A DNA stretch of 59,266 nucleotides from Patescibacteria group bacterium (GCA_018818965.1 JAHJQX010000020.1:1-59266); one strand, 5' to 3'. Shown: positions 9,831-58,832, counted from the first letter of the stretch. The notes: a model not told the origin generated them from the letters alone. A program made the numbers and translations.

Positions 9831-12563
9831 ATGACCGAAGTATTTATCGTAAAAAGGATAGCTTTTGTTGGTAGTTTAGCTGTTCTTTTATTTTTGATCG
9901 CATCGGGAAACTCACAGGCTGCTAATGGTTCAGATATTCAACCGGCGGATGATCTTATTTATTACGAAAGACTACGAGTCAACAGCTCTATCCATGTCGC
10001 TGACTCTAGTTATTATCCCCGCGGCGTTCATCTCGGTAGTATCGATGGTACGGGCGGGGTGATATTCACCAACGGTTCAATTATTAATGCTTCCGATGGT
10101 AGTGTACCAGTTACTTTTGGCGATGATGTGCGGATCGATGGTCGCATCTGGCGTGGCCCGAGTGCGGGTCCAGGTGATAGTTTCCCGGTCAAGATTTATG
10201 ATGATTTGCGGGTAGATGGTCAAATTTGGGCCGGACGCAGTAGGGGCAACACTGCCGATGGTCAATCGATAGTGATAGCTGATACAGTGCGCCCCGCTTT
10301 GGATAATATTAATGACTTTGGTTCTCCAGGTTTCCGGATGCGCGATGGCTTTTTTTCCGGCTCAGTTAATATGAGTAATTTAGGGGGAGCAAATGTTGTT
10401 CATGAAGATAATCTTAGTACAACTAATGATCCCCAAGCCGGGTACGTATTAGCTTATGATAGCGATAATAGATTCCAGTGGGTGCGAGCTTCAACCAGCA
10501 GCTCTGGTACATTGTCAGATAATGATTGGACCGGAGCGGGTAGTGGAAAGATGTATGCCACTTCTGAAGATGACTATGTCGGAATCGGACTTACCGATAC
10601 CAATAATATTACTGCTAGATTACATGTAGTTGATAATACTAATACAAATTCCACTGTATATGGAGAAGCGAATGGGATTGGTAGTGCTGCTTTGTACGGT
10701 TTAGCAACCGCACCAGGTAGTACAGCAGTTTATGGTTCTGGGGATGCCTATGGTGGAGATTTTAGTGGTACCGAAGCCAATGGAGTAGGTGTTAGTGGCG
10801 AAGCCAATGGTGTGTCTGGAATTGGTGTAGAGGGTAAAGCTGCTCATATTTCCGGCACTGGCGTTAAGGGCGAGGCGTCTGCTACGGACAGTGGTACTAA
10901 TTATGGTGGTGATTTCTCCGCAGCCGGTACAACTGGAGTAGCTGTTAGAGGACAAGCTACTTCTACTAGCTCAGATACTAGCTATGGCGGGTATTTCTCC
11001 GCTGCTGGTTCTGCTGGGATGGGAGTGCGTGGTGAAGTTAGTGATACGAGTCTGTTAGCAGCCTCATATGGCGGATATTTCTCTTCGGCTACTGGGTTGG
11101 GTAGAGGTGTTTATGGCTATGCAAGCAATACTCTTGGTATAAATTTCGGTGGATATTTTAAATCTGATAGTGTTCTAGGCAGTGGTGTCTATGGTACCAG
11201 TCCATATTTTGGCGTGAACGCTTACGCCACCCCGGCTGCTGGGGCAACAACTAGTGCGGCCGTGGTTGGCCAAAATTATGATAGCACTACGGCCATTAGT
11301 CTACCTATACCAGTCGGTAATTATGGGGCCTTCCTTGAAACTACACATGATACTGGTACTGGAGTTTACGGTCATGCAGCAGATACTGACGGTGTCAATT
11401 ACGGTGGTACTTTTATTAGTGAGAGTAGCAATGGTTATGGCCTTTTCGCTAGCGGCGGTACTAGAGGCGGCTCTTTTATAGCCAGTGCGGGGGTAGGTGT
11501 TAGCTCTCTTGGCACAACTCATGGCGGTTCTTTTATAGGTTCTGCTGGTCCAGGGGTTTATGCTCTGGGTGCTACCAATGGGATTGAAGCAACCGCTGCC
11601 GCTGGTGCCGGGGTATCTGCCACTGGTACTGCTTATGGCGTTGAGGCAACAGCTAGTGCGGGGGCAGGAGTAAAGGGGACTGGTACTACTTATGGCGGCG
11701 ATTTTTTAGCTAGTAGTGGTACAGGCGTAAGGGGTATAGCGACTACCGGGACTGGAGTCAGTGGAACAGGTGATACAGGTGGTGGTAGTTTTACTGCTAG
11801 TAGCGGTACTGGTGTTTATAGTAGAGGCACCACTTATGGAGCATATCTTACTACTATTACAGCGGGAGGAATTGGCGTAGAGGGGTATGCTGGTACTACG
11901 GGGTCATCAGCTAACTATGGAGTGTTAGGTCAGACCATAGATAGTGGCGCCGGTACAACTGTTTGGGGTGATTCACTTTCTGGCGGTAGATTTTATACTA
12001 ATTACGCTTCGGGTATCGGAGTTGAGAGCTATACTGATGGTGATGATAGCTCAGCTGTTTATGGATATACTAGTGGAGGTGGCACAAGCTACAGCGGAGA
12101 GTTTAGTGGAGCTAATTTTAAGGTTTCTTTAGGCCCTTCCTCAAACAATTTTACTGTTGAGAATTTGCCCATTGCTGGCAATACTACTGATGTTCAAACT
12201 GATGGAAATGGCAATTTTATTGAAGTTGGCTCTTCCCGTAGATATAAATATGATATTCAAGATTTGGTCGTTGATAAAGACGCTGTTCTAGATTTGCGGC
12301 CGGTAAATTATAAATATAAAAGAACTGACGAGAGAGATATTGGGCTAATTGCTGAGGAGGTGTATGAAGTTTTGCCAGAGCTTGTTGTGCTGGATAAGGA
12401 AGAAAAACCGAAATCAGTAAAATACGATCGTGTTCCAGTGTATCTTCTCGAACTAGCCAAAGAGCAACAAGCAACAATCGAAAGCCAGGAAACTCGCATC
12501 CAGCAATTGGAAGATACTATTTGTAAATACCTACCACAAGAAGAAATGTGCTCGAGTGACTAA
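9831..12563 (+). CDS. secreted glycine-repeat fibre protein with a C-terminal tail-fibre S74 intramolecular-chaperone domain (paralogue 1)
   Basis: 910 aa. It has a signal peptide (IAFVGSLAVLLFLIASGNSQA), a conserved ~230-aa N-module (GDDVRIDGRIW, YDDLRVDGQIW), a VGIGLTD...ARLHV tail-fibre-like neck, ~490 aa of G/S/T/A/Y repeats (YGG(Y/D)F...G.GV.G), and a C-terminal SSRRYKYDI...DLRPVNYKYK......IGLIAEEV.EVLPELV......V.YDRV.VYLLE.AKEQ. Confidence 0.85.
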   Translation: MTEVFIVKRIAFVGSLAVLLFLIASGNSQAANGSDIQPADDLIYYERLRVNSSIHVADSSYYPRGVHLGSIDGTGGVIFTNGSIINASDGSVPVTFGDDVRIDGRIWRGPSAGPGDSFPVKIYDDLRVDGQIWAGRSRGNTADGQSIVIADTVRPALDNINDFGSPGFRMRDGFFSGSVNMSNLGGANVVHEDNLSTTNDPQAGYVLAYDSDNRFQWVRASTSSSGTLSDNDWTGAGSGKMYATSEDDYVGIGLTDTNNITARLHVVDNTNTNSTVYGEANGIGSAALYGLATAPGSTAVYGSGDAYGGDFSGTEANGVGVSGEANGVSGIGVEGKAAHISGTGVKGEASATDSGTNYGGDFSAAGTTGVAVRGQATSTSSDTSYGGYFSAAGSAGMGVRGEVSDTSLLAASYGGYFSSATGLGRGVYGYASNTLGINFGGYFKSDSVLGSGVYGTSPYFGVNAYATPAAGATTSAAVVGQNYDSTTAISLPIPVGNYGAFLETTHDTGTGVYGHAADTDGVNYGGTFISESSNGYGLFASGGTRGGSFIASAGVGVSSLGTTHGGSFIGSAGPGVYALGATNGIEATAAAGAGVSATGTAYGVEATASAGAGVKGTGTTYGGDFLASSGTGVRGIATTGTGVSGTGDTGGGSFTASSGTGVYSRGTTYGAYLTTITAGGIGVEGYAGTTGSSANYGVLGQTIDSGAGTTVWGDSLSGGRFYTNYASGIGVESYTDGDDSSAVYGYTSGGGTSYSGEFSGANFKVSLGPSSNNFTVENLPIAGNTTDVQTDGNGNFIEVGSSRRYKYDIQDLVVDKDAVLDLRPVNYKYKRTDERDIGLIAEEVYEVLPELVVLDKEEKPKSVKYDRVPVYLLELAKEQQATIESQETRIQQLEDTICKYLPQEEMCSSD
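10641..12111 (+). repeat. in-frame glycine-rich repeat array (~27-aa YGGxF units, then ~19-aa G.GV units); coordinates approximate
   Basis: Reading the protein gives units such as NYGGDFSAAGTTGVAVRGQATSTSSDTS / YGGYFSAAGSAGMGVRGEVSDTS.. / YGGYFSSATGLGRGVYGYASNTLGIN. Later units are TTHGGSFIGSAGPGVYALG / TAYGVEATASAGAGVKGTG / TTYGGDFLASSGTGVRGIA. Confidence 0.5.
12231..12560 (+). other. Peptidase_S74-like intramolecular chaperone (autoprocessing) domain plus a C-terminal coiled coil and Cys loop, paralogue 1
   Basis: SSRRYK (a Ser-x4-Lys dyad pattern) begins at 12231. GLIAEEVYEVLPELV and VYLLELAKEQQATIESQE match the endosialidase-chaperone pattern. The protein ends in CKYLPQEEMC. Confidence 0.7.
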
Positions 12564-12631: not shown

Positions 12632-15385
12632 ATGAAAATGAAAACTACAATGTTGCCGGCGATAATCACAATTAAAAGAATAGCTTTCAGTTTGGGAGTG
12701 GCTGTTTTGACGTGCCTGACTGTTACTAATCTGGCTCAAGCCTCAGACGCCTCTGACATTCAACCCGCCTCCGATGTGGTTTATGGTGAAAGACTGCGAG
12801 TCAACAGCTCCGTTAGTGTGGCTGACTCGAGTTATTATTATCGTGGCATTCATTTAGGTAGTACAGACGGCACTGGTGGCGTGATATTTGCTAATGGTTC
12901 AATTATTAATGTTTCTGGTGGTAGTACTCCAGTTACTTTTGGTGATGATTTGCGGATTGACGGTCGTATTTGGCGCGGACCAACGGCTGGTCCGGGTGAT
13001 AATTTCCCGGTCAAGATTTATGATGATCTACGCGTAGATGGCCAAATATGGGGAGGACGGAGTAAGGGAAATACTGCTGATGGCCAATCTATAGTGCTAG
13101 CTGATACTGTGCGTCCAGCTTTGGATAATATTAATGACTTTGGTGCTCCAACTTTCCGGATGCGAGATGGCTTCTTCTCTGGCACGGTCAATGTGGGAAA
13201 TTTAGGGGGGGCTGGCGTTGTTCACGAAGATAATTTAAGTGCAACCAATGATCCGCAGGCCGGATATGTGTTGGCATACAATAGCAATAACCAATTTCAG
13301 TGGGTTGCTGGTTCGGGCGTTGGTGGTTCAGATACTGACTGGACGGGAGCGGGCACGGGCACAATGTATGCTACTACTACTAGTGATAATGTAGGGATTG
13401 GTTTAAGCACTGGCTTGAATGCCAAGCTTCATGTTTATGATGCCAGCAATACAGTTGTAGAAGGACAAAGTGTTTCAGCAGCCGGAGTAGTAGGGAGAAG
13501 TTCTACTGGCGATGGGGTAAAAGGTCACAGTACTTCTAGTGAAGGTGGTTGGTTTGAGACGGCCAGTGGCACCCGTGCTGTCTATGGCCAAGCGACTGAC
13601 ACTGGTAGTGGTGTTCACTATGGTGGTTATTTTACCGCTGGCAAGAATAGCGGCATTGGGGTTCTCGGATCATCTACTGGTTCTGACGGAGCCGGTGTTT
13701 ATGGTAGTTCCACCGGAACGGGCAGTAGCGCCACCGGTGTTTCGGGAATGGCGGCTTCCTATGGAGGTGATTTTGCAGCTACCGGGACAAGTGGACTTGG
13801 AGTGAGGGGACAGGCAGTTGGTACTAGTGGTGTTGGGATACAGGGCATTGGTGGATATTATGGCGGTCAGTTTTCTAATAGTGGCACTGGTGGTGGAGTG
13901 GGTATGCAAGCGGCTGTAACTAGCGGTTCAACTTTTTCTTCGGCGGTTCTGGGGATTAATAATTCAACTGGTTTGATTTTACATCCTACCGGTCATTATG
14001 GTGGATATTTTAGTAATTCTATTGCTTCTGGCTATGGGGTTTATGCGACTGCTTCAGGTTCTAGTGGCATCGGAGTTTATGGCTCATCTAGCCATACAGG
14101 AGTAACGGGCACCGTTTCATCAACGGGTCAGGCGACTGGCTATGGCGTGTCTGGTACCTTGACTGATACCAGCTTGCCAGCTGTGGTTTATGCTGGGCTA
14201 TATGGGGGATTGTTTACCACCAATTATGCTTCTGCTACAGCATTATCCGGATCTGCTAGTAATTCTACTAGTACTGGTGTCTATGGCTACGGCGGATTAT
14301 ATGGTGGTGATTTTTATGCTGCGAATAATAATGGGGCGGGAGTAAGGAGTAGGGTTATAACTGGTTCGGGCGCTGCTTCAGCAGCGGTGTTTGGGTTAAA
14401 TAATACAACTGGCACAGTTCCGGCATATACTGGGCATTATGGAGGATATTTCCAATTAGAAAGTAGTGCCGGCTTTGGTGTTTATGCTAAGACGGATGCT
14501 GCTAATAGTACAGCTGTCCATGCTTACAATTCTTCCACCGGAGTTAATGCCACTGGCGGATATTTTGAAACGGAAAGCGATACCAGTTACGCTGTTTATG
14601 GTTTAGCTGATGGTGGTGGGACGGGGACAAATTATGGTGGATATTTTAAGGCTGATGCATCTTCCGGTACTGCTGTTTATGGCACTACTTCTGGAACTTC
14701 GGGAACGGGCGTTGATGGTATTGCCTCTGGATCTTCAGGGACAGGTGTTGCTGGAACTGGATATAAATATGGCGGATATTTTATTGCACAAGATACTTCA
14801 AATGGCTACAGCGGGGTTTTTTCAGGTGGTAATTTTTCTGTTGGATTGTCCACCACTTCTAATAAGTTTAGGATTACTGCGGGTCCTACATACACCGGCA
14901 TAGGTCTTGCGTCGGGCTCTTATCATGATGTTCAAATTTTAGCCGATGGTACTTTAGCTGATGGCGGCGCTTCTTCAATCCGCCTTAAAGATAATGTTGA
15001 AAATTTAACTTTTGATACTGCAAGTGTTCTCGATCTGCAACCTGTTAGCTTTACTTACAAAGAGAGTGGTGAGGCTGGTGTTGGTTTAATCGCTGAAGAT
15101 GTTGAGCAAATTATGCCCGAGTTAGTTACTTATGACGAAGAAGGTAGGGTTGATGGAGTAAGATATAGAAACATACCGCTGTATCTATTGCAAATAACCA
15201 AGGATCAGCAAACTAAAATAGAGGTTCAAGAAAGCAAAACAATTACGCAAGAAAACAAAAACACTGCCCAAGACAAAACCATCGAAGAACAAAAAAATAA
15301 AATCACCGAACTAGAAAATGAAGTCAGTAGTCTTAAATCAGCTTTTTGCCGGTATTTACCCCACGAAGATATTTGCCAGGAATAA
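12632..15385 (+). CDS. secreted glycine-repeat fibre protein with a C-terminal tail-fibre S74 intramolecular-chaperone domain (paralogue 2)
   Basis: 917 aa with the same architecture as 9831..12563. The N-module looks roughly 80% identical at DNA level by eye (e.g. 12940-13150 vs 10110-10320). The central repeats are diverged. The C-terminus is SSIRLKDNVENL...LQPVSFTYK...GVGLIAEDVEQIMPELV...VRYRNIPLYLLQITKDQ. Confidence 0.85.
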   Translation: MKMKTTMLPAIITIKRIAFSLGVAVLTCLTVTNLAQASDASDIQPASDVVYGERLRVNSSVSVADSSYYYRGIHLGSTDGTGGVIFANGSIINVSGGSTPVTFGDDLRIDGRIWRGPTAGPGDNFPVKIYDDLRVDGQIWGGRSKGNTADGQSIVLADTVRPALDNINDFGAPTFRMRDGFFSGTVNVGNLGGAGVVHEDNLSATNDPQAGYVLAYNSNNQFQWVAGSGVGGSDTDWTGAGTGTMYATTTSDNVGIGLSTGLNAKLHVYDASNTVVEGQSVSAAGVVGRSSTGDGVKGHSTSSEGGWFETASGTRAVYGQATDTGSGVHYGGYFTAGKNSGIGVLGSSTGSDGAGVYGSSTGTGSSATGVSGMAASYGGDFAATGTSGLGVRGQAVGTSGVGIQGIGGYYGGQFSNSGTGGGVGMQAAVTSGSTFSSAVLGINNSTGLILHPTGHYGGYFSNSIASGYGVYATASGSSGIGVYGSSSHTGVTGTVSSTGQATGYGVSGTLTDTSLPAVVYAGLYGGLFTTNYASATALSGSASNSTSTGVYGYGGLYGGDFYAANNNGAGVRSRVITGSGAASAAVFGLNNTTGTVPAYTGHYGGYFQLESSAGFGVYAKTDAANSTAVHAYNSSTGVNATGGYFETESDTSYAVYGLADGGGTGTNYGGYFKADASSGTAVYGTTSGTSGTGVDGIASGSSGTGVAGTGYKYGGYFIAQDTSNGYSGVFSGGNFSVGLSTTSNKFRITAGPTYTGIGLASGSYHDVQILADGTLADGGASSIRLKDNVENLTFDTASVLDLQPVSFTYKESGEAGVGLIAEDVEQIMPELVTYDEEGRVDGVRYRNIPLYLLQITKDQQTKIEVQESKTITQENKNTAQDKTIEEQKNKITELENEVSSLKSAFCRYLPHEDICQE
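13457..14867 (+). repeat. in-frame glycine-rich repeat array of paralogue 2; coordinates approximate
   Basis: Recurrent units include HYGGYF...G.GV.GSS, SYGGDFAATGTSGLGVRGQA, YYGGQFSNSGTGGGVGMQA, HYGGYFSNSIASGYGVYATA, LYGGDFYAANNNGAGVRSR, NYGGYFKADASSGTAVYGT. Confidence 0.5.
14972..15382 (+). other. Peptidase_S74-like intramolecular chaperone domain plus an extended coiled coil and Cys loop, paralogue 2
   Basis: SSIRLK begins at 14972. A 137-aa C-terminal module ends in a Q/E/K-rich heptad-like stretch and CRYLPHEDIC. Confidence 0.7.
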
Positions 15386-33022: not shown

Positions 33023-33193
33023 GGCTAGTCGTCTTAGTATATCTAGAAAACATGTCAGATTTCCCCAGCCTGCCTGCCGGCAAGCAGGCTGGGGAAATCC
33101 AACTCGGCTTCCGGCCTTGCTCTCCCGCCGAAGGCGGGAACCGTGCCTGCAAGGTCTCCAGACAGTTTTCTAAATACACCAAGGCGACTAGCC
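33023..33193 (+). repeat. GC-rich palindromic/structured insert A (CCTGCCTGCCGG family) between ntpK and ntpE
   Basis: The outer arms are GGCTAGTCG (33023-31) and CGACTAGCC (33185-93). A 42-nt near-perfect palindrome GATTTCCCCAGCCTGC-CTGCCGGCAA-GCAGGCTGGGGAAATC spans 33058-33099. A second hairpin is TCCCGCC-GAA-GGCGGGA (33123-39), nested in GGCCTTGC/GCAAGGTC. Confidence 0.55.
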
Positions 33194-35134: not shown

Positions 35135-35138
35135 CCAT

Positions 35139-35249
35139 TTATTACTTTATCATAACCACTTTGCTGGCAGTAAGCTTTTTTAGAAGGAAACTTGCGATGT
35201 CCGCCTGCCTGCCGGTAGGCAAGGCTCAGCGATTATGACAAAGTAATAA
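35139..35249 (+). repeat. GC-rich structured insert B (CCTGCCTGCCGG family) between ntpF and ntpA
   Basis: The outer 17-bp arms are TTATTACTTTATCATAA (35139-55) and TTATGACAAAGTAATAA (35233-49), with one mismatch. The core contains CCTGCCTGCCGGTAGGCAAGG (12-mer at 35204-35215). Confidence 0.55.
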
Positions 35250-35281
35250 AAATATATAAACAACTAATTCATTATTAAGAA

Positions 35282-54067: not shown

Positions 54068-54083
54068 CGTCGTTAATCAAAAT

Positions 54084-54163
54084 AAGGTTAATCATGGTTG
54101 GTGAGTGAACCCGGCCCCGATCTGATCGGGGCTAAGGTGAACGAACTAACCATGATTAACCTT
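54084..54163 (-). other. structured element D: a perfect 16-bp helix enclosing a 48-nt core (candidate cis-regulatory RNA) upstream of prmC
   Basis: The arms are AAGGTTAATCATGGTT (54084-99) and AACCATGATTAACCTT (54148-63). The inner stem is 9 bp, GCCCCGATC/GATCGGGGC (54114-32). The reverse complement of the core is 29/48 identical, ungapped, to the core of element E. Confidence 0.55.
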
Positions 54164-54167
54164 GTAC

Positions 54168-55397
54168 CTACCCTACCCAATAAGTATTAACAAACATGGT
54201 AATAAAAAGTGCGGAGAGCATGGAGCAGAGAATGATGGTAGCATAATTAAGAGTCTGATTGCGTCCCCACTTGGCCAACAGAATAAAGGCGGGGAAGAGA
54301 GCCAACGTAAATCTGCTCATGCTCATAAAAGTGCCGGTGATGGCAGGGATAAGCAAGTAAAGCAGCATATACAATCCGTAAGAACGACGCATGGAAATCA
54401 AGACGATGATAGATAAAGCAGCAAAAATTACAAAAAAGAGAAAGTCGAGGGAGTTAGTAAGGTAGAGGGCAAAATTTTCGTGCTGGGGATTGATAAGTAT
54501 GTTGGAATAGTGCGAGAGGGTGTTCCAAAAATGAGAGAAAGAAATCGAAGTTTGGCGACCCCAGGCGTCTTGAGCAAAGGCAAAAAGATAAGGGTTGTCG
54601 AATTTTTGGTAAAGATAATACATGTAAATACCCAATCCACCTGGGATGAGAAGGAGGTTAAGTGAATTAGCTTTGATTTTGAGGGGATTAAATTTGCGTT
54701 GTTCTAAATATTCCACCAGTAGAATGCCAAGCATAATGATACCAGCGGGGCGGGTGAGACTGGCTAGCATACCCCAAATAGAGGCAGCATACCATTGTCC
54801 CCGCCGGGCGTGGTAAAAACTTGCTACTACCGTGAGTAAGAAAAGTGATTCAGAATAGATGGAAGCCAAAAAAATAGAAGTAGGGAAAATTAACATATAC
54901 AAAACCGAACGCAAGGCGGTGCGCTGGCTGATTTCTATTTTAACTAAATAATAAAGATAAAAGCAGGTGGCCAGAGTACAAAGGCTGGAAACAATTACTC
55001 CAGCCAAGGCGTATTGGTTGTTGGTAATAAAAGAAAAGAGTCGAATTAGTTGGGGGTAAAGGGGGAAAAACACGACACTCGACCATTCTCCAGGAGCGGT
55101 CCAATAGTAACCTTTTTCGGCGATGCTAAGGTACCAACCAGAATCCCAACGAGCCCAGTATTGTAAATATGAGGGAATTTTTTCTAGCCAGGTCTGGCCG
55201 GCGTCAGTGGACCAACTATAAGCTGGATCATTAGTTAAGCCGAGTCGTCCTTTGGCCAGGAAAGCCATCAGCCAAATAATCAACCGCCAAGCAGTGAATA
55301 GACCCAAAATAGATAAAACCTCCCGCCAGTTTATTCGTTGTTTTTTTACCCGCACCTTCACCGGGTGGTGGTCTTTGTGTCGCCTGATCAAATCCAT
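54168..55397 (-). CDS. GT-C-type integral membrane glycosyltransferase, PIG-V-like mannosyltransferase family
   Basis: 409 aa and ~10 TM. The WARWDSGWYLSIAEKGY motif is characteristic of the PIG-V family. It lies between prfA and prmC. Confidence 0.7.
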   Translation of the reverse strand: MDLIRRHKDHHPVKVRVKKQRINWREVLSILGLFTAWRLIIWLMAFLAKGRLGLTNDPAYSWSTDAGQTWLEKIPSYLQYWARWDSGWYLSIAEKGYYWTAPGEWSSVVFFPLYPQLIRLFSFITNNQYALAGVIVSSLCTLATCFYLYYLVKIEISQRTALRSVLYMLIFPTSIFLASIYSESLFLLTVVASFYHARRGQWYAASIWGMLASLTRPAGIIMLGILLVEYLEQRKFNPLKIKANSLNLLLIPGGLGIYMYYLYQKFDNPYLFAFAQDAWGRQTSISFSHFWNTLSHYSNILINPQHENFALYLTNSLDFLFFVIFAALSIIVLISMRRSYGLYMLLYLLIPAITGTFMSMSRFTLALFPAFILLAKWGRNQTLNYATIILCSMLSALFITMFVNTYWVG

Positions 55398-55398
55398 T

Positions 55399-56463
55399 TT
55401 AGTTTTGCGATAGTTTACGTTGTTGATCTTCGGCAGTCAACTTGCCTATCAGTATAGCAAGATTTCCGTCTAACACCTCGGAGATATTTTTGACACTAAA
55501 CTTGATACGGTGGTCAGTAATACGATCCTGGGGGAAATTATAGGTACGGATTTTTTCACTGCGGTCGCCGGTACCAACTTGAGTATTACGGGCGTCTCCA
55601 CGTTCCTTTCTTTGTCGTTCCTGTTCTTCAAATAGTAGACGAGAACGTAACACCTTCATCGCTTTATCACGATTTTTATGCTGTGATTTCTCATCCTGGC
55701 AGGAGACAACTACGCCGGATGGCTTATGAGTGATTCGGATAGCAGAATCTGTTGTATTGACACTTTGTCCGCCAGGGCCAGAAGAGCGGAATGTATCGAT
55801 TTCTAGATCTTTGGGATCAATCTCAATATCTACATCCTTGGCTTCCGGTAGCACTGCTACCGTAGCGGCTGAAGTATGGATGCGACCACTTTTTTCTGTT
55901 TCTGGTACGCGTTGAACACGATGGACGCCACTTTCATATTTGAGTTGTTTATATGCGTTCTCACCCTTGACGGCAAAAATTATTTCTTTGAACCCACCGA
56001 TGCCAGTGCGGCTAGAGTTTATCAATTCCAGGTGTAATCTATTTTGTTCAGCGTAACGAGAATACATTCGGTAAAGATTGGCGGCAAAGAGAGCAGCTTC
56101 TTCGCCACCCACCCCCGCTCGGATTTCCATAATAACGTTTTTATCATCATTGGGGTCTTGGGGAAGCAGAGTGACTTGTAATTTATCTTCTAATTCTCTT
56201 TTTTGTGCCTGTAATCCAGTCAACTCTTCTTCAGCCATAGCTATCAGGTCGTTGTCATTTTCCGAGGAGATGATTTTTTTGTCTTCTTGGATACCCTGGA
56301 TAATTTCGTGGTACTTTTTGCCCAGATTGTTAATATCTTCTAAAGCAGCCTGGCGCTGAGAGAGTTCTTTTAATTTCTGCGGATCAGAAGAAATCTCAGG
56401 TCGATTGAGCTGGTCAGCAATATCTTGGTATTCTTTTTCTAATTTAGCTAATTTCTCTAGCAT
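55399..56463 (-). CDS. prfA: peptide chain release factor 1
   Basis: 354 aa. The RF1-type tripeptide region is [17 protein letters not shown] (P-x-T), the GGQ motif is [14 protein letters not shown], and there is also DHR. Confidence 0.97.
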
Positions 56464-56500
56464 ATATACTATTAAACCACGAAACTATGGTACACAGCAA

Positions 56501-56529
56501 ACAAAAATCAGAGCCGAAAAGCTCCGATT
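56501..56529 (-). terminator. intrinsic terminator after rpmE
   Basis: The reverse strand reads AATCGGAGC-TTTTCG-GCTCTGATT (9 bp, one mismatch) followed by TTTTGTTTG. Confidence 0.5.
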
Positions 56530-56548
56530 TTATTAAACGCCATTTTAG

Positions 56549-56899
56549 CTACTTGCCTTTTTTGGTGGCTTTGGCTTTCTTTTTATCCTGCTTTTTGGGT
56601 TTAACTAGTTTATCTTTTTCCTTATCAGCCTTTTTCGTTTCCCCTTGGCTCTTTTCGGTGGCTGGTTTTTTCTTAGGCTTCTTAGCAGCACTCATCTTAG
56701 CTGCTTTTTCCTGCATTGCTTTGAAGCGGTCTACCCGGCCGGCGGTATCAACATATTTTTGCTTACCAGTATAGAAAGGATGACACAACGAGCAAACTTC
56801 CACGTTTATTTTATCAACGGTGGAGCCAGTTTCAAAAGTGTTGCCGCAGGCGCAAGTAACGGTTGTTTTGCCGTATTTGGGGTGAATCTTTGGTTTCAT
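56549..56899 (-). CDS. rpmE: 50S ribosomal protein L31 (Zn-ribbon type) with a Lys-rich C-terminal extension
   Basis: MKPKIHPKY....V.CACGN.FET.ST......[22 protein letters not shown] is followed by a ~50-aa K-rich tail. I take the start at the ATG at 56899; the track's 56926 start adds 9 codons that look non-native. Confidence 0.9.
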
Positions 56900-56975
56900 G
56901 ACATTTTTACATTTATAAAAATACACGTAAAGAAATTGTAATGCTTTTTTAGCGGAGAGGCAAGGGGATTTGCCG

Positions 56976-58679
56976 CTACTTCACCATCTTCACCATATAT
57001 TCTCCCCTTAGCCGATACCCAAATTTGCGATAATAATCTCGCACGCCCACACCAGAAATAACAGCGATTTTATCCAGTTTAAATTTTCGCCGGGCGATTT
57101 TTTCTGCTTCCTGCACTAGTTTTTTCCCCAATCCAGCGTGTTGCACAGCTCCCTTTTTTTTGGTGGCGACGGGGATCAATTGACCATATGAGTGAACTTC
57201 GCGAATCAGAGCCGAACCTTCGAGCACAGGCAAAAAGTGTTTTTGGCCGGAAAAATGTTGCGAAGGAATCCGCAAGCGTAAAAAGGCTAATATTTTGTCA
57301 TTTTTCACGTCCTCGAAAGATAGAAATATCTCTTTGCCGCCCGAGGCATCATAGTCACGCCGCGTTAGCTTCATATTGCCTGGCTGGTAATCTTGCCCCT
57401 TTATTTCTCGACACCGTATGCATCGACACTCCACTTTTACCGTTGCCATCCTTGCTTGTACATCCTGTCGGATATTCGAGATTTTATTGCCGGCGATGAT
57501 ATCAGTGGCCGGGATATCACGTCCTAGTCGCATAATACGAACGTAAGGCGGTATAATCGCTTTGATTTTTACTAGTAAACTGATGAGTTGGTTATTTGCA
57601 TACGGCTTATATTTACCTTGCTGGTACATTTGAGCCAGCTTAGAGTCCCGCGTAAGTACACAGGGATAAATTTTTAGCATGTCGGGTTGGAAGTCAGAGC
57701 TAGAAAATATTTGCTTAAATGTTTTTAAATCTCGCGCTGGTGTGCTGCCGGGCAAATTAGGCATTAAGTGGTAGTTGATTTTGCAGCCAGCGTCTTTGAG
57801 GAGTTGGGTAGCTCTAATAGTTTCCGCTATCCCATGTCCGCGTTTGGTTTGACGTAAAATATTATCATCGGTACTTTGTACACCAAGCTCAACCCGCGTC
57901 ACTCCTAATCGGCGCAGGCGAACAATTTCTGACTCGTCAATCAAGTCCGGTCGAGTTTCGATGGTGATACCAATAATGCGCTGCCGCGCTTTTTCGTTGC
58001 GCCTTTTTTCTGCCGCCAAGCAAATATATGTTTTTGGTAGCTCAAAACTTTTAATTTTCCGTAAGGCTGCCTCCGTTTTTGCTTTGGAATTTTTAATTTT
58101 CTCCCTTGGTTTACCACCTGCCTGCCGGCCGGCAAGGCTTGTAACTTCAAACTTAAAATCATTACAGGCTTTAAAACACCGCGCCACAAATTGACTTTGA
58201 TATTTCCCTGGAAGGGAAGAAAAAGATCCACCCAAGATAATAAGTTCAATTTTATTTGTTGAATGACCGGTAATATTCAGCGAATTTAGTCGCGCTGTTA
58301 CTTGTTTATAGGGCTCAAAGCCAGTCAAAATTGCGCGCATCACGGCTGGCTCATCGGAGAAGTAGCTTTTGGGCATTTTTTTCTCTGTCGGGCAATAAAT
58401 ACACTGACCAGGACAAGGATGGGGTCTGGTTAAGACAGAAATTGACGCAATTCCTGATAAGGTACGTGTTTTTTGTTTTTTCAGTAAGTGTTCTAATTCT
58501 GAGCTTGGCGCCACTTTTTTCGCTTTGACTAACTGTCGATAACACTCTAAGATTTCTATATTAGAAGGACAGGCGCCGCCATACTGGGCTGCCCAAGCGT
58601 GCTTGATGGACTCAAACGATTTGGTATTGAGTCTAGGGAGCTTAAGGGCTTGTTTTACGATTATTTCTACTGGATTCAT
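56976..58679 (-). CDS. elp3: Elp3-like radical SAM/GNAT tRNA-modification enzyme
   Basis: 567 aa. The radical-SAM cluster region is [13 protein letters not shown], followed by [19 protein letters not shown] and C-terminal GNAT motifs (REVHSYG......QH.GLGKKL..EAE.IA). Confidence 0.85.
58117..58140. repeat. third copy of the CCTGCCTGCCGG palindromic repeat core, in frame inside elp3
   Basis: CCTGCCTGCCGGCCGGCAAGGCTT. The central TGCCGGCCGGCA is a perfect 12-nt palindrome. On the coding (minus) strand it reads SLAGRQAGG (Elp3 residues 181-189). Confidence 0.55.
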
Positions 58680-58715
58680 GTGGCATTAATATTGTAACTG
58701 TTTGTGTTATATATC

Positions 58716-58799
58716 TTGCGACTAGCTATAGTTACCTCTCTCACCACAGCTCAGCCAGAAGCGGAGCCGGGTTCGATCGGCAACTATAGCTAGTCGCAA
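58716..58799 (+). other. structured element E: a perfect 18-bp helix enclosing a 48-nt core (candidate cis-regulatory RNA) upstream of the PP-loop gene
   Basis: The arms are TTGCGACTAGCTATAGTT (58716-33) and AACTATAGCTAGTCGCAA (58782-99). The inner stem spans 58749-58767 (GCTCAGC..GCGGAGC). The core is homologous to element D in the opposite genomic orientation. Confidence 0.55.
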
Positions 58800-58832
58800 C
58801 CAAACGATAAACTTTCGCCATAATATATCAAG

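Follow-up and report, generated by a model that had tools for sequence, protein, structure and literature searches.

A lineage-restricted family of ~80-nt rod hairpin repeats at gene junctions in Parcubacteria

The window analysed here, a metagenomic contig of 59,266 bp (ENA ERZ27247117, k141_353167), belongs to a member of the Parcubacteria within the candidate phyla radiation (CPR), and its closest named relatives are 'Parcubacteria group bacterium' metagenome-assembled genomes (MAGs). An operon on its minus strand comprises, in this order, a radical-SAM/elp3-like gene, the gene for L31, prfA, a PIG-V-like mannosyltransferase (MT) gene and prmC. Two structured elements are associated with this operon. 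Element D (54084-54163) takes up most of the 100-nt spacer between the MT gene and prmC, and element E (58716-58799) is located within the 153-nt spacer that separates the radical-SAM gene from a divergent Asn-synthase/PP-loop gene. The original prediction, made from the sequence of the window, regarded D and E as two copies of a candidate new structured RNA, possibly a riboswitch-like regulator, placed upstream of prmC and of the PP-loop gene. The analysis presented here reveals that D and E are copies of a lineage-restricted, previously undescribed family of ~80-nt rod hairpin repeats. The same elements are present in independent assemblies (ENA, NCBI, JGI and Logan), so that they are no assembly artefact. 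No tRNA is detected in the window by ARAGORN, and Rfam 15 yields no match in it at the gathering threshold.

The arms of D (AAGGTTAATCATGGTT / AACCATGATTAACCTT) pair perfectly over 16 bp and those of E (TTGCGACTAGCTATAGTT / AACTATAGCTAGTCGCAA) over 18 bp, and both enclose a core of 48 nt. The reverse complement of the D core is identical to the E core at 29 of 48 positions in an ungapped alignment, a number that is reached in none of 20000 shuffles, and in the other relative orientation the cores share 13 of 48 positions. These features had been described correctly in the original prediction, as had the distances to the nearest ATG (16 nt for D and 33 nt for E) and the two compensatory pairs of the apical hairpin, which correspond to columns 35:49 and 39:45 of our alignment. 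The picture of two unrelated arms that clamp a core needs revision, however. Although the arms are perfect, the pairing runs on beyond them into a core that is itself mostly paired, and the whole 80-84 nt form one rod hairpin. Likewise, only the outer 7-10 bp of the arms are unique to each locus, whereas the 9-12 bp that adjoin the core show partial conservation (AT.RTTG.. / ..TA...AT).

The informative strand, here called the GA strand, is the plus strand for D and the minus strand for E. On this strand the hairpin consists of a lower helix, 19-21 bp long in all full copies, a 2×2 internal loop with GA opposite GA, two base pairs, a second GA/GA loop and an ACC/GGU helix, followed by a 1×2 loop and a 9-bp GC-rich apical hairpin with a 3-nt loop. 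In D, which is 80 nt long and reaches a score of 99 bits with the covariance model described below, the 5' arm of the lower helix (54084-54102, plus strand) pairs with the 3' arm (54145-54163, plus strand). The outer 16 bp of this helix are perfect Watson-Crick pairs and the third pair counted from the core is a conserved G.U. The conserved module between the arms (54103-54144, plus strand) reads GA-GU-GA-ACC-C-(9-bp apical hairpin, 54113-54133)-AA-GGU-GA-AC-GA, with the GA/GA loops at 54103-4/54143-4 and 54107-8/54139-40. In E (84 nt, 97 bits) the equivalent module (58737-58778), read on the minus strand, is GA-UC-GA-ACC-C-(apical hairpin, 58768-58748)-GU-GGU-GA-GA-GA; the 5' arm of its lower helix (58779-58799, minus strand) pairs with 58716-58736. 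The GA/GA loops are invariant in four of five full copies, and the two-base-pair helix between them covaries among the copies, being GU/AC in D, UC/GA in E and elsewhere also GC/GC. In addition, all four copies from which the model was built have a G.U pair at columns 19:66 and at columns 32:52. From the sequence context, which according to established RNA thermodynamics favours such an arrangement, the GA-facing-GA loops are predicted to form tandem sheared G.A pairs.

Tandem G.A motifs combined with variable palindromic stems, and the presence of TIGR-Tas systems in Parcubacteria, prompt a comparison with box C/D-like or TIGR-type guide RNA units. In a kink-turn (K-turn) of the box C/D type a 3-nt bulge is followed by tandem G.A pairs, the C box being RUGAUGA and the D box CUGA. 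In D and E the G.A pairs occupy symmetric 2×2 loops flanked by Watson-Crick pairs, and no register exists in which a 3-nt bulge can be placed beside them. TIGR loci, which do occur in CPR bacteria, resemble the present elements in having stem-loop units with variable palindromic stems around conserved short motifs (PMC12045711). They are defined, however, by a tandem array beside a Nop-domain Tas gene and by two unpaired spacers of 8-12 nt flanked by box C/D motifs (PMC12045711), whereas the copies described here are single and dispersed, their core is almost fully paired without such spacers, their motifs differ from the UG and CCA of TIGR, and no Nop-domain gene is present among the window genes scanned. 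A guide RNA unit is thus hardly credible. Mimicry of a tRNA T-arm, suggested by GGGTTCGATC on the strand chosen in the original prediction, was also considered and rejected; ARAGORN finds nothing, and the would-be T-loop of D lacks the conserved A58 and C61.

The folding z-scores of D and E range from -7.8 to -13. In a four-copy alignment 97% of the cells are paired, compared to 24-40% in controls with slid partners, and 20 of 35 pairs have changed on both sides; a six-sequence MAFFT alignment, in which a 74-nt variant was misplaced, did not enter the pair counts. The two strands are not equivalent. In all six distinct copies the GA strand folds better than the opposite strand, by 2.4-14 kcal/mol, and when the GA/GA loops are set aside, all non-Watson-Crick pairs inside the helix on this strand are G.U pairs (13 cells). 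The only two A.C cells both occur at the outermost modelled pair (columns 1:84), past the real end of the helix. The element would therefore appear to act as a folded single strand. This strand is opposite to the one proposed originally, which is sense to prmC and to the PP-loop gene.

The distribution of the family was examined with two pattern scans, built on GAnnGAACCCGGC...GGTGAnnGA, over genomes and metagenomes, and with a covariance model, built from four copies and then used to search contigs. Most pattern matches are chance occurrences in GC-rich genomes. The genuine ones are two copies, L034 and L100, that both belong to the MAG JBDRPV01 (GCA_043826745.1, hereafter species J), and one additional copy, L193, the only one from the whole JGI metagenome scan; viral contigs gave no match in the pattern scan. 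Because the patterns demanded an exact core, the size and range of the family are underestimated. The census from the genome scan is incomplete as well, and all counts are lower bounds. The model search added an ortholog of D at the same junction in species J (L199, 6633-6712), a degenerate variant of 74 nt in L193 and L201, and a copy next to aroA both in L201, which comes from the same assembly as the window, and in L202. These two contigs, L201 and L202, contain the orthologs of the aroA copy and of a copy at an ABC transporter junction. Given the common assembly and the similar divergence, L201 and L193 probably come from the same organism as the window. A search of Rfam, at gathering as well as permissive thresholds, matches no known family and returns only generic hairpin noise of the miRNA type (≤22 bits), and a literature search on repeats or miniature inverted-repeat transposable elements (MITEs) in Patescibacteria found nothing relevant.

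In total the family, with elements of 74-84 nt, occupies at least five loci in two related Parcubacteria species. The first is the MT/prmC junction, which carries D in both species with its GA strand antisense to the radical-SAM/L31/prfA/MT/prmC operon. At the second, the pheA/tyrA-aroA junction, which is occupied in both species, and at the third, between the genes for an ABC ATPase and its permease, the GA strand is sense to the surrounding transcription, and the distance between the copies and the neighbouring stop and start codons is 10-20 nt. The fourth is the 5' leader of the radical-SAM operon, occupied by E in the window species only and in sense orientation. The fifth, found in species J (L100), lies in the spacer of convergent NUDIX and ABC-permease genes, 6 nt past the permease stop codon, and is probably antisense.

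These positions are difficult to reconcile with a riboswitch-like cis-regulator, possibly for SAM or SAH (S-adenosylmethionine or S-adenosylhomocysteine), that would form part of the prmC and PP-loop gene leaders and be sense to both genes. In favour of such a function are the conserved structure and the location 16-33 nt upstream of an ATG. The strand required is the less stable one, however, and turns the G.U pairs into C.A mismatches. Moreover, the other copies precede or follow unrelated genes, the family as a whole being found in both orientations beside prmC, aroA and radical-SAM genes as well as NUDIX and ABC transporter genes; relatives carry the same genes without any leader element, and species J has a different hairpin at the E site. 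The fold itself is an unbranched rod that offers no junction pocket, no expression platform and no sequestering of a ribosome-binding site, and neither a terminator-like site nor a U-tract is present at D or E. The element also does not recur in sense 5' leaders of functionally related genes. A riboswitch is very improbable on these grounds and was rejected; the element does not serve prmC or the PP-loop gene as a ligand-sensing regulator. Of the original proposal the conserved structure stands, with real covariation, but not the orientation, the role of SAM or the association with prmC and the PP-loop gene.

Comparison of orthologous copies indicates strong constraint. D of the window species differs from D of species J at only 4 of 80 positions, and the differences include one A-U to G-C double change, fully compensatory, within the arm specific to this locus. 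The aroA copy is identical between the two species at all 84 positions. Identity at fourfold-degenerate sites amounts to 47% for prfA, 65% for the radical-SAM gene and 75% for aroA, and even at an average coding divergence of 19% the probability of four or fewer differences in 80 positions is 3e-4. Across two orthologous pairs, 1 of 28 unpaired positions has changed. The small number of changes, in the unpaired positions as well, shows that sequence and pairing are both constrained. One GA and one G.U are lost from D in species J, where the stem is strengthened; this fits a relaxed GA constraint where the other strand is transcribed, although only four substitutions are involved.

The sites of D and E, as well as those at aroA and NUDIX, are empty in five related lineages. 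Their prfA proteins are 77-91% identical and their gene order is the same. In these relatives the MT gene and prmC overlap or are at most 3 nt apart (2-3 nt where spaced), the pheA-aroA gap measures 1-14 nt, the spacer at the E site is 41-45 nt long and keeps the same promoter, and the NUDIX/permease spacer contains only a small terminator hairpin. No copy of the family is found in ~55 kb of one outgroup. Since these sites are empty and the lineages are about equidistant (75-81% nucleotide identity), a gain in the common ancestor of the two carrier species is the simplest history. The family may have arisen when copies were duplicated or inserted at the few sites that a compact genome leaves free, namely gene junctions and one 5' leader, and would have spread before the two carrier species split. 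Since then the copies have been retained by purifying selection on the pairing and on the unpaired nucleotides.

Paralogs are homologous over ~62-66 nt, with the apical hairpin common to D and the aroA copy and the inner 12 nt of the E 5' arm (GCTATAGTTGCC) common to E and L100. Outside this unit the terminal 7-10 bp are unrelated between loci, and yet perfectly paired without wobble. None of seven copies examined is flanked by direct repeats, no terminal inverted repeat is common to all copies, and the arms do not recur systematically in the flanks. A classical MITE, which the original prediction had kept as an alternative, can therefore be dismissed. The single 8-mer that does recur, GTTAATCA in the D arm (54087-54094), is repeated within the 16 nt that separate D from the prmC start codon (54068-54083). 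The repeat is kept in species J with one G.U and could pair alternatively beside the start codon; nothing comparable is present at the other copies.

A non-autonomous mobile DNA of another type, akin to REP (repetitive extragenic palindromic) sequences, MITEs or IS200/IS605 ends, would fold as single-stranded DNA, be handled by an enzyme encoded elsewhere and be essentially selfish, and the strand asymmetry would reflect the strand on which the transposase or recombinase acts. The multiple, always intergenic copies in both orientations, their presence or absence between lineages and the occupation of the same junctions by different hairpin families in different lineages all agree with such an origin, as do the perfect Watson-Crick outer helix and the end of a JBDRPV01 contig right beside the ABC-junction copy. 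Furthermore, G.A and G.T pairs are stable in DNA hairpins too. Besides the absence of target-site duplications and of common terminal repeats, the lack of matches in viral contigs and of a transposase among the window genes scanned (a scan that did not cover every open reading frame) speak against it. In addition, orthologous copies, including their locus-specific arms, are far more conserved than neutral sites, unlike a decaying selfish insertion. Mobile DNA is accordingly a somewhat unlikely explanation, but one that deserves attention.

The family is duplicative, structured, strand-asymmetric, under purifying selection, located at gene junctions and untied to any gene function. On the basis of the predicted folds and their genomic positions, we tentatively favour, with a probability of roughly 45%, a role as folded RNA inside the host mRNAs, where the element would be a generic cis-acting stem-loop for stability or for processing of the RNase III type. 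E is located inside the predicted 5' leader of the radical-SAM operon, and its GA strand is sense to this operon. A promoter-like site of the operon, TTGATA-16 nt-TATCGT (58804-58831, minus strand), is kept in the relatives that lack E, as shown by the aligned spacers, and would put the transcript start within a few nucleotides of the first base of E. A conserved promoter at such a distance is one reason to favour RNA. Further reasons are that most copies fit snugly between cistrons, that the length of the lower helix suits RNase III-type enzymes, and that tolerance of G.U and G.A pairs is typical of RNA. With its 19-21 bp, the lower helix of the full copies is about as long as the duplex that RNase III-type enzymes need, their substrate hairpins having ~20 bp or more of coaxial double-stranded RNA. 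It is the 7-10 locus-specific base pairs, added to the homologous unit of ~62-66 nt, that make up the full length of this uninterrupted helix. The resulting hairpin could shield transcript ends or, alternatively, could be cut by a double-strand-specific RNase of the RNase III type, separating the cistrons, and the G.A/G.U module might serve as a protein-recognition mark wherever the GA strand is the transcribed one.

The gene downstream of E (56976-58679) encodes a bacterial Elp3-like radical-SAM protein with Radical_SAM and Radical_SAM_C domains, and heads the operon with L31, prfA and prmC. The Elp3-like/L31/prfA/prmC gene order is kept in all relatives examined.

Several observations weigh against a role in mRNA. 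The orientation is mixed, with sense copies at E, aroA and the ABC junction and antisense copies at D and probably L100, and no promoter-like site was found for the plus strand of D. As D is conserved even though its GA strand is antisense, a function in the sense of the mRNA cannot account for the GA and G.U features of all loci. In none of the copies do the outer 13-18 bp contain a G.U, which selection at the RNA level alone does not predict; a wobble-free outer helix fits a DNA-level origin or a requirement for a perfect duplex. Finally, the statistics of the unpaired positions are thin, with two orthologous pairs. The antisense D, the mixed orientation and the wobble-free outer helices keep a DNA-level hairpin, mobile or protein-bound, as a serious rival.

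The protein-bound variant of such a hairpin would be a DNA site or cruciform recognized by, e.g., a nucleoid, topoisomerase or replication-associated protein, for which the orientation of the genes is irrelevant. The mixed orientation and the conservation of D in antisense are then expected, the perfect outer arms favour cruciform extrusion, and the duplex contains two direct GNNGANNGA repeats 38 bp apart. However, the restriction to G.U and the fact that one of the strands is the more stable suggest one folded strand rather than a duplex, and compensatory changes in the stem are needless for a duplex binding site. Taken by itself this variant is unlikely.

A comparably low probability is given to an independent small RNA gene of ~80 nt, trans-acting or protein-sequestering, that would be transcribed from the GA strand at each locus. 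It would account for the GA-strand features at all loci whatever the direction of the neighbours, and for the conservation of unpaired nucleotides between species. On the other hand, the plus strand shows no site resembling a promoter or terminator on either side of D, the copies are squeezed 4-20 nt from the flanking genes inside operons, the lower helix differs in each copy, and sister lineages lack the family. Moreover, no U-tract follows any copy on either strand, and for this reason intrinsic terminators were rejected as well.

A bolder reading, which we consider rather doubtful, is that the module, with its two GA/GA loops, two G.U pairs and ACC/GGU helix on top of a long perfect helix, is recognized by a protein that these reduced Parcubacteria dedicate to it. 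The family would then represent a new RNA-protein or single-stranded DNA-protein system that copies itself into gene junctions with no duplication left behind and with an inverted repeat, different at each locus, formed around every new copy. If true, its copying mechanism would be of a hitherto undescribed sort.

Long hairpins of other families are also present in these genomes. The E site of species J contains a different, GC-rich clamped hairpin, and the D site of lineage L196 an unrelated element of ~150 nt. In the window, a second family of GC-rich clamped hairpins is represented in a spacer of the V-type ATPase operon (33040-33185, core palindrome 33058-33099). Its layout is GATTTCCCCAG...CTGGGGAAATC followed by CTCCCGCC-loop-GGCGGGAACCGTGCC, it has no Rfam match, and related cores occur at L196 6850-7005 and L199 ~1965-2050, the junctions where the window has D and E. 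A third clamped hairpin (35138-35250), also between V-ATPase genes, combines AT-rich arms of 23 nt (87% complementary) with the GC-rich stem-loop CCGCCTGCCTGCCGGTAGGCAAGG. A hairpin of 98 nt, AAAACCCCATTCCTACCTACAGT...ACTGTAGGCGGGAGTGGGGTTTT, is kept in species J and an outgroup (L034, 5143-5240; L203, 3836-3930) downstream of shikimate-pathway genes, with wobble pairs that are consistent only on the minus strand. Two more long hairpins (L200, 8770-8887 and 8895-8970) occupy the spacer after the MT gene in a more distant relative, and the apical stems of both (CCCGAT-nnn-ATCGGGG) are similar to the tip of the D hairpin. These sequences hint that hairpin tips are reused in a modular fashion between families.

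Two further features concern protein-coding genes. A two-gene insertion just upstream of pheA/tyrA (L193, 2766-4263; L201, 7061-8558; absent from L034) encodes an AbiEii-type nucleotidyltransferase toxin of a type IV toxin-antitoxin system and an unannotated partner, and separates the window-like lineage from species J. In the window, two adjacent paralogs of ~910 amino acids (9831-12563 and 12632-15385) match Pfam only through a Peptidase_S74 (endosialidase chaperone) domain at the C-terminus, and might serve the CPR cell as surface fibres or as proteins resembling phage tails.

The genomes of CPR bacteria are tiny and densely packed with genes, and to our knowledge almost nothing is known about the non-coding elements that they contain. 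The present results indicate that the few intergenic junctions of such genomes are recurrently occupied by long hairpins, and that at least one hairpin family is under strong selection on both its pairing and its unpaired bases. The combination of a common central module with perfect, locus-specific outer helices and no target duplications is not explained by standard transposition models. If the element functions as RNA, it would open operon processing and mRNA stability to study in organisms that resist cultivation on their own; if it functions as DNA, it could point to a novel route by which hairpins spread. In either case the riboswitch annotation that suggests itself upstream of prmC proves to be wrong.

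Among known systems, integron attC sites are similar in that they act as folded single strands with strand-specific unpaired bases and have very different sequences between copies. Their organization is the reverse of that observed here, with conserved outer boxes and a variable centre, and neither an integrase nor a cassette array accompanies the present copies. REP/REPIN sequences, associated with RAYT transposases, are likewise short, GC-rich, strand-asymmetric extragenic hairpins that are thought to be handled as single strands, and their pairing is maintained by compensatory change (PMC3116915). REPs differ in being 20-40 nt long, in carrying a conserved 5' tetranucleotide, in occurring in tens to hundreds of near-identical copies and in flanking a RAYT gene, none of which is seen here. 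With the RNase III hairpins of phage T7 intercistronic regions and of rRNA intervening sequences the predicted fold shares about two turns of uninterrupted duplex below an upper stem with internal loops, as well as the position between cistrons and, as for intervening sequences, the sporadic distribution among relatives. We know of no counterpart of the GA/GA and G.U module in RNase III substrates.

The closest resemblance, together with that to REP/REPIN sequences, is to the transcribed bacterial repeats ERIC/IRU, the Neisseria Correia elements and the Rickettsia palindromic elements (RPE), which are imperfect palindromes of ~80-150 nt located in operon spacers in either orientation, and present or absent between related genomes. 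Repeats of these types are known for effects that involve RNase III and RNase E. They can fold into long RNA hairpins able to affect the processing and stability of mRNA (PMC3184786). In contrast to them, the family described here has a conserved hairpin centre and locus-specific ends, lacks a common terminal inverted repeat and a TA or other target duplication, is known in very low copy number from one small clade, and has orthologs under strong purifying selection. It is thus a variant of the known dispersed intergenic palindromic or structured repeats.

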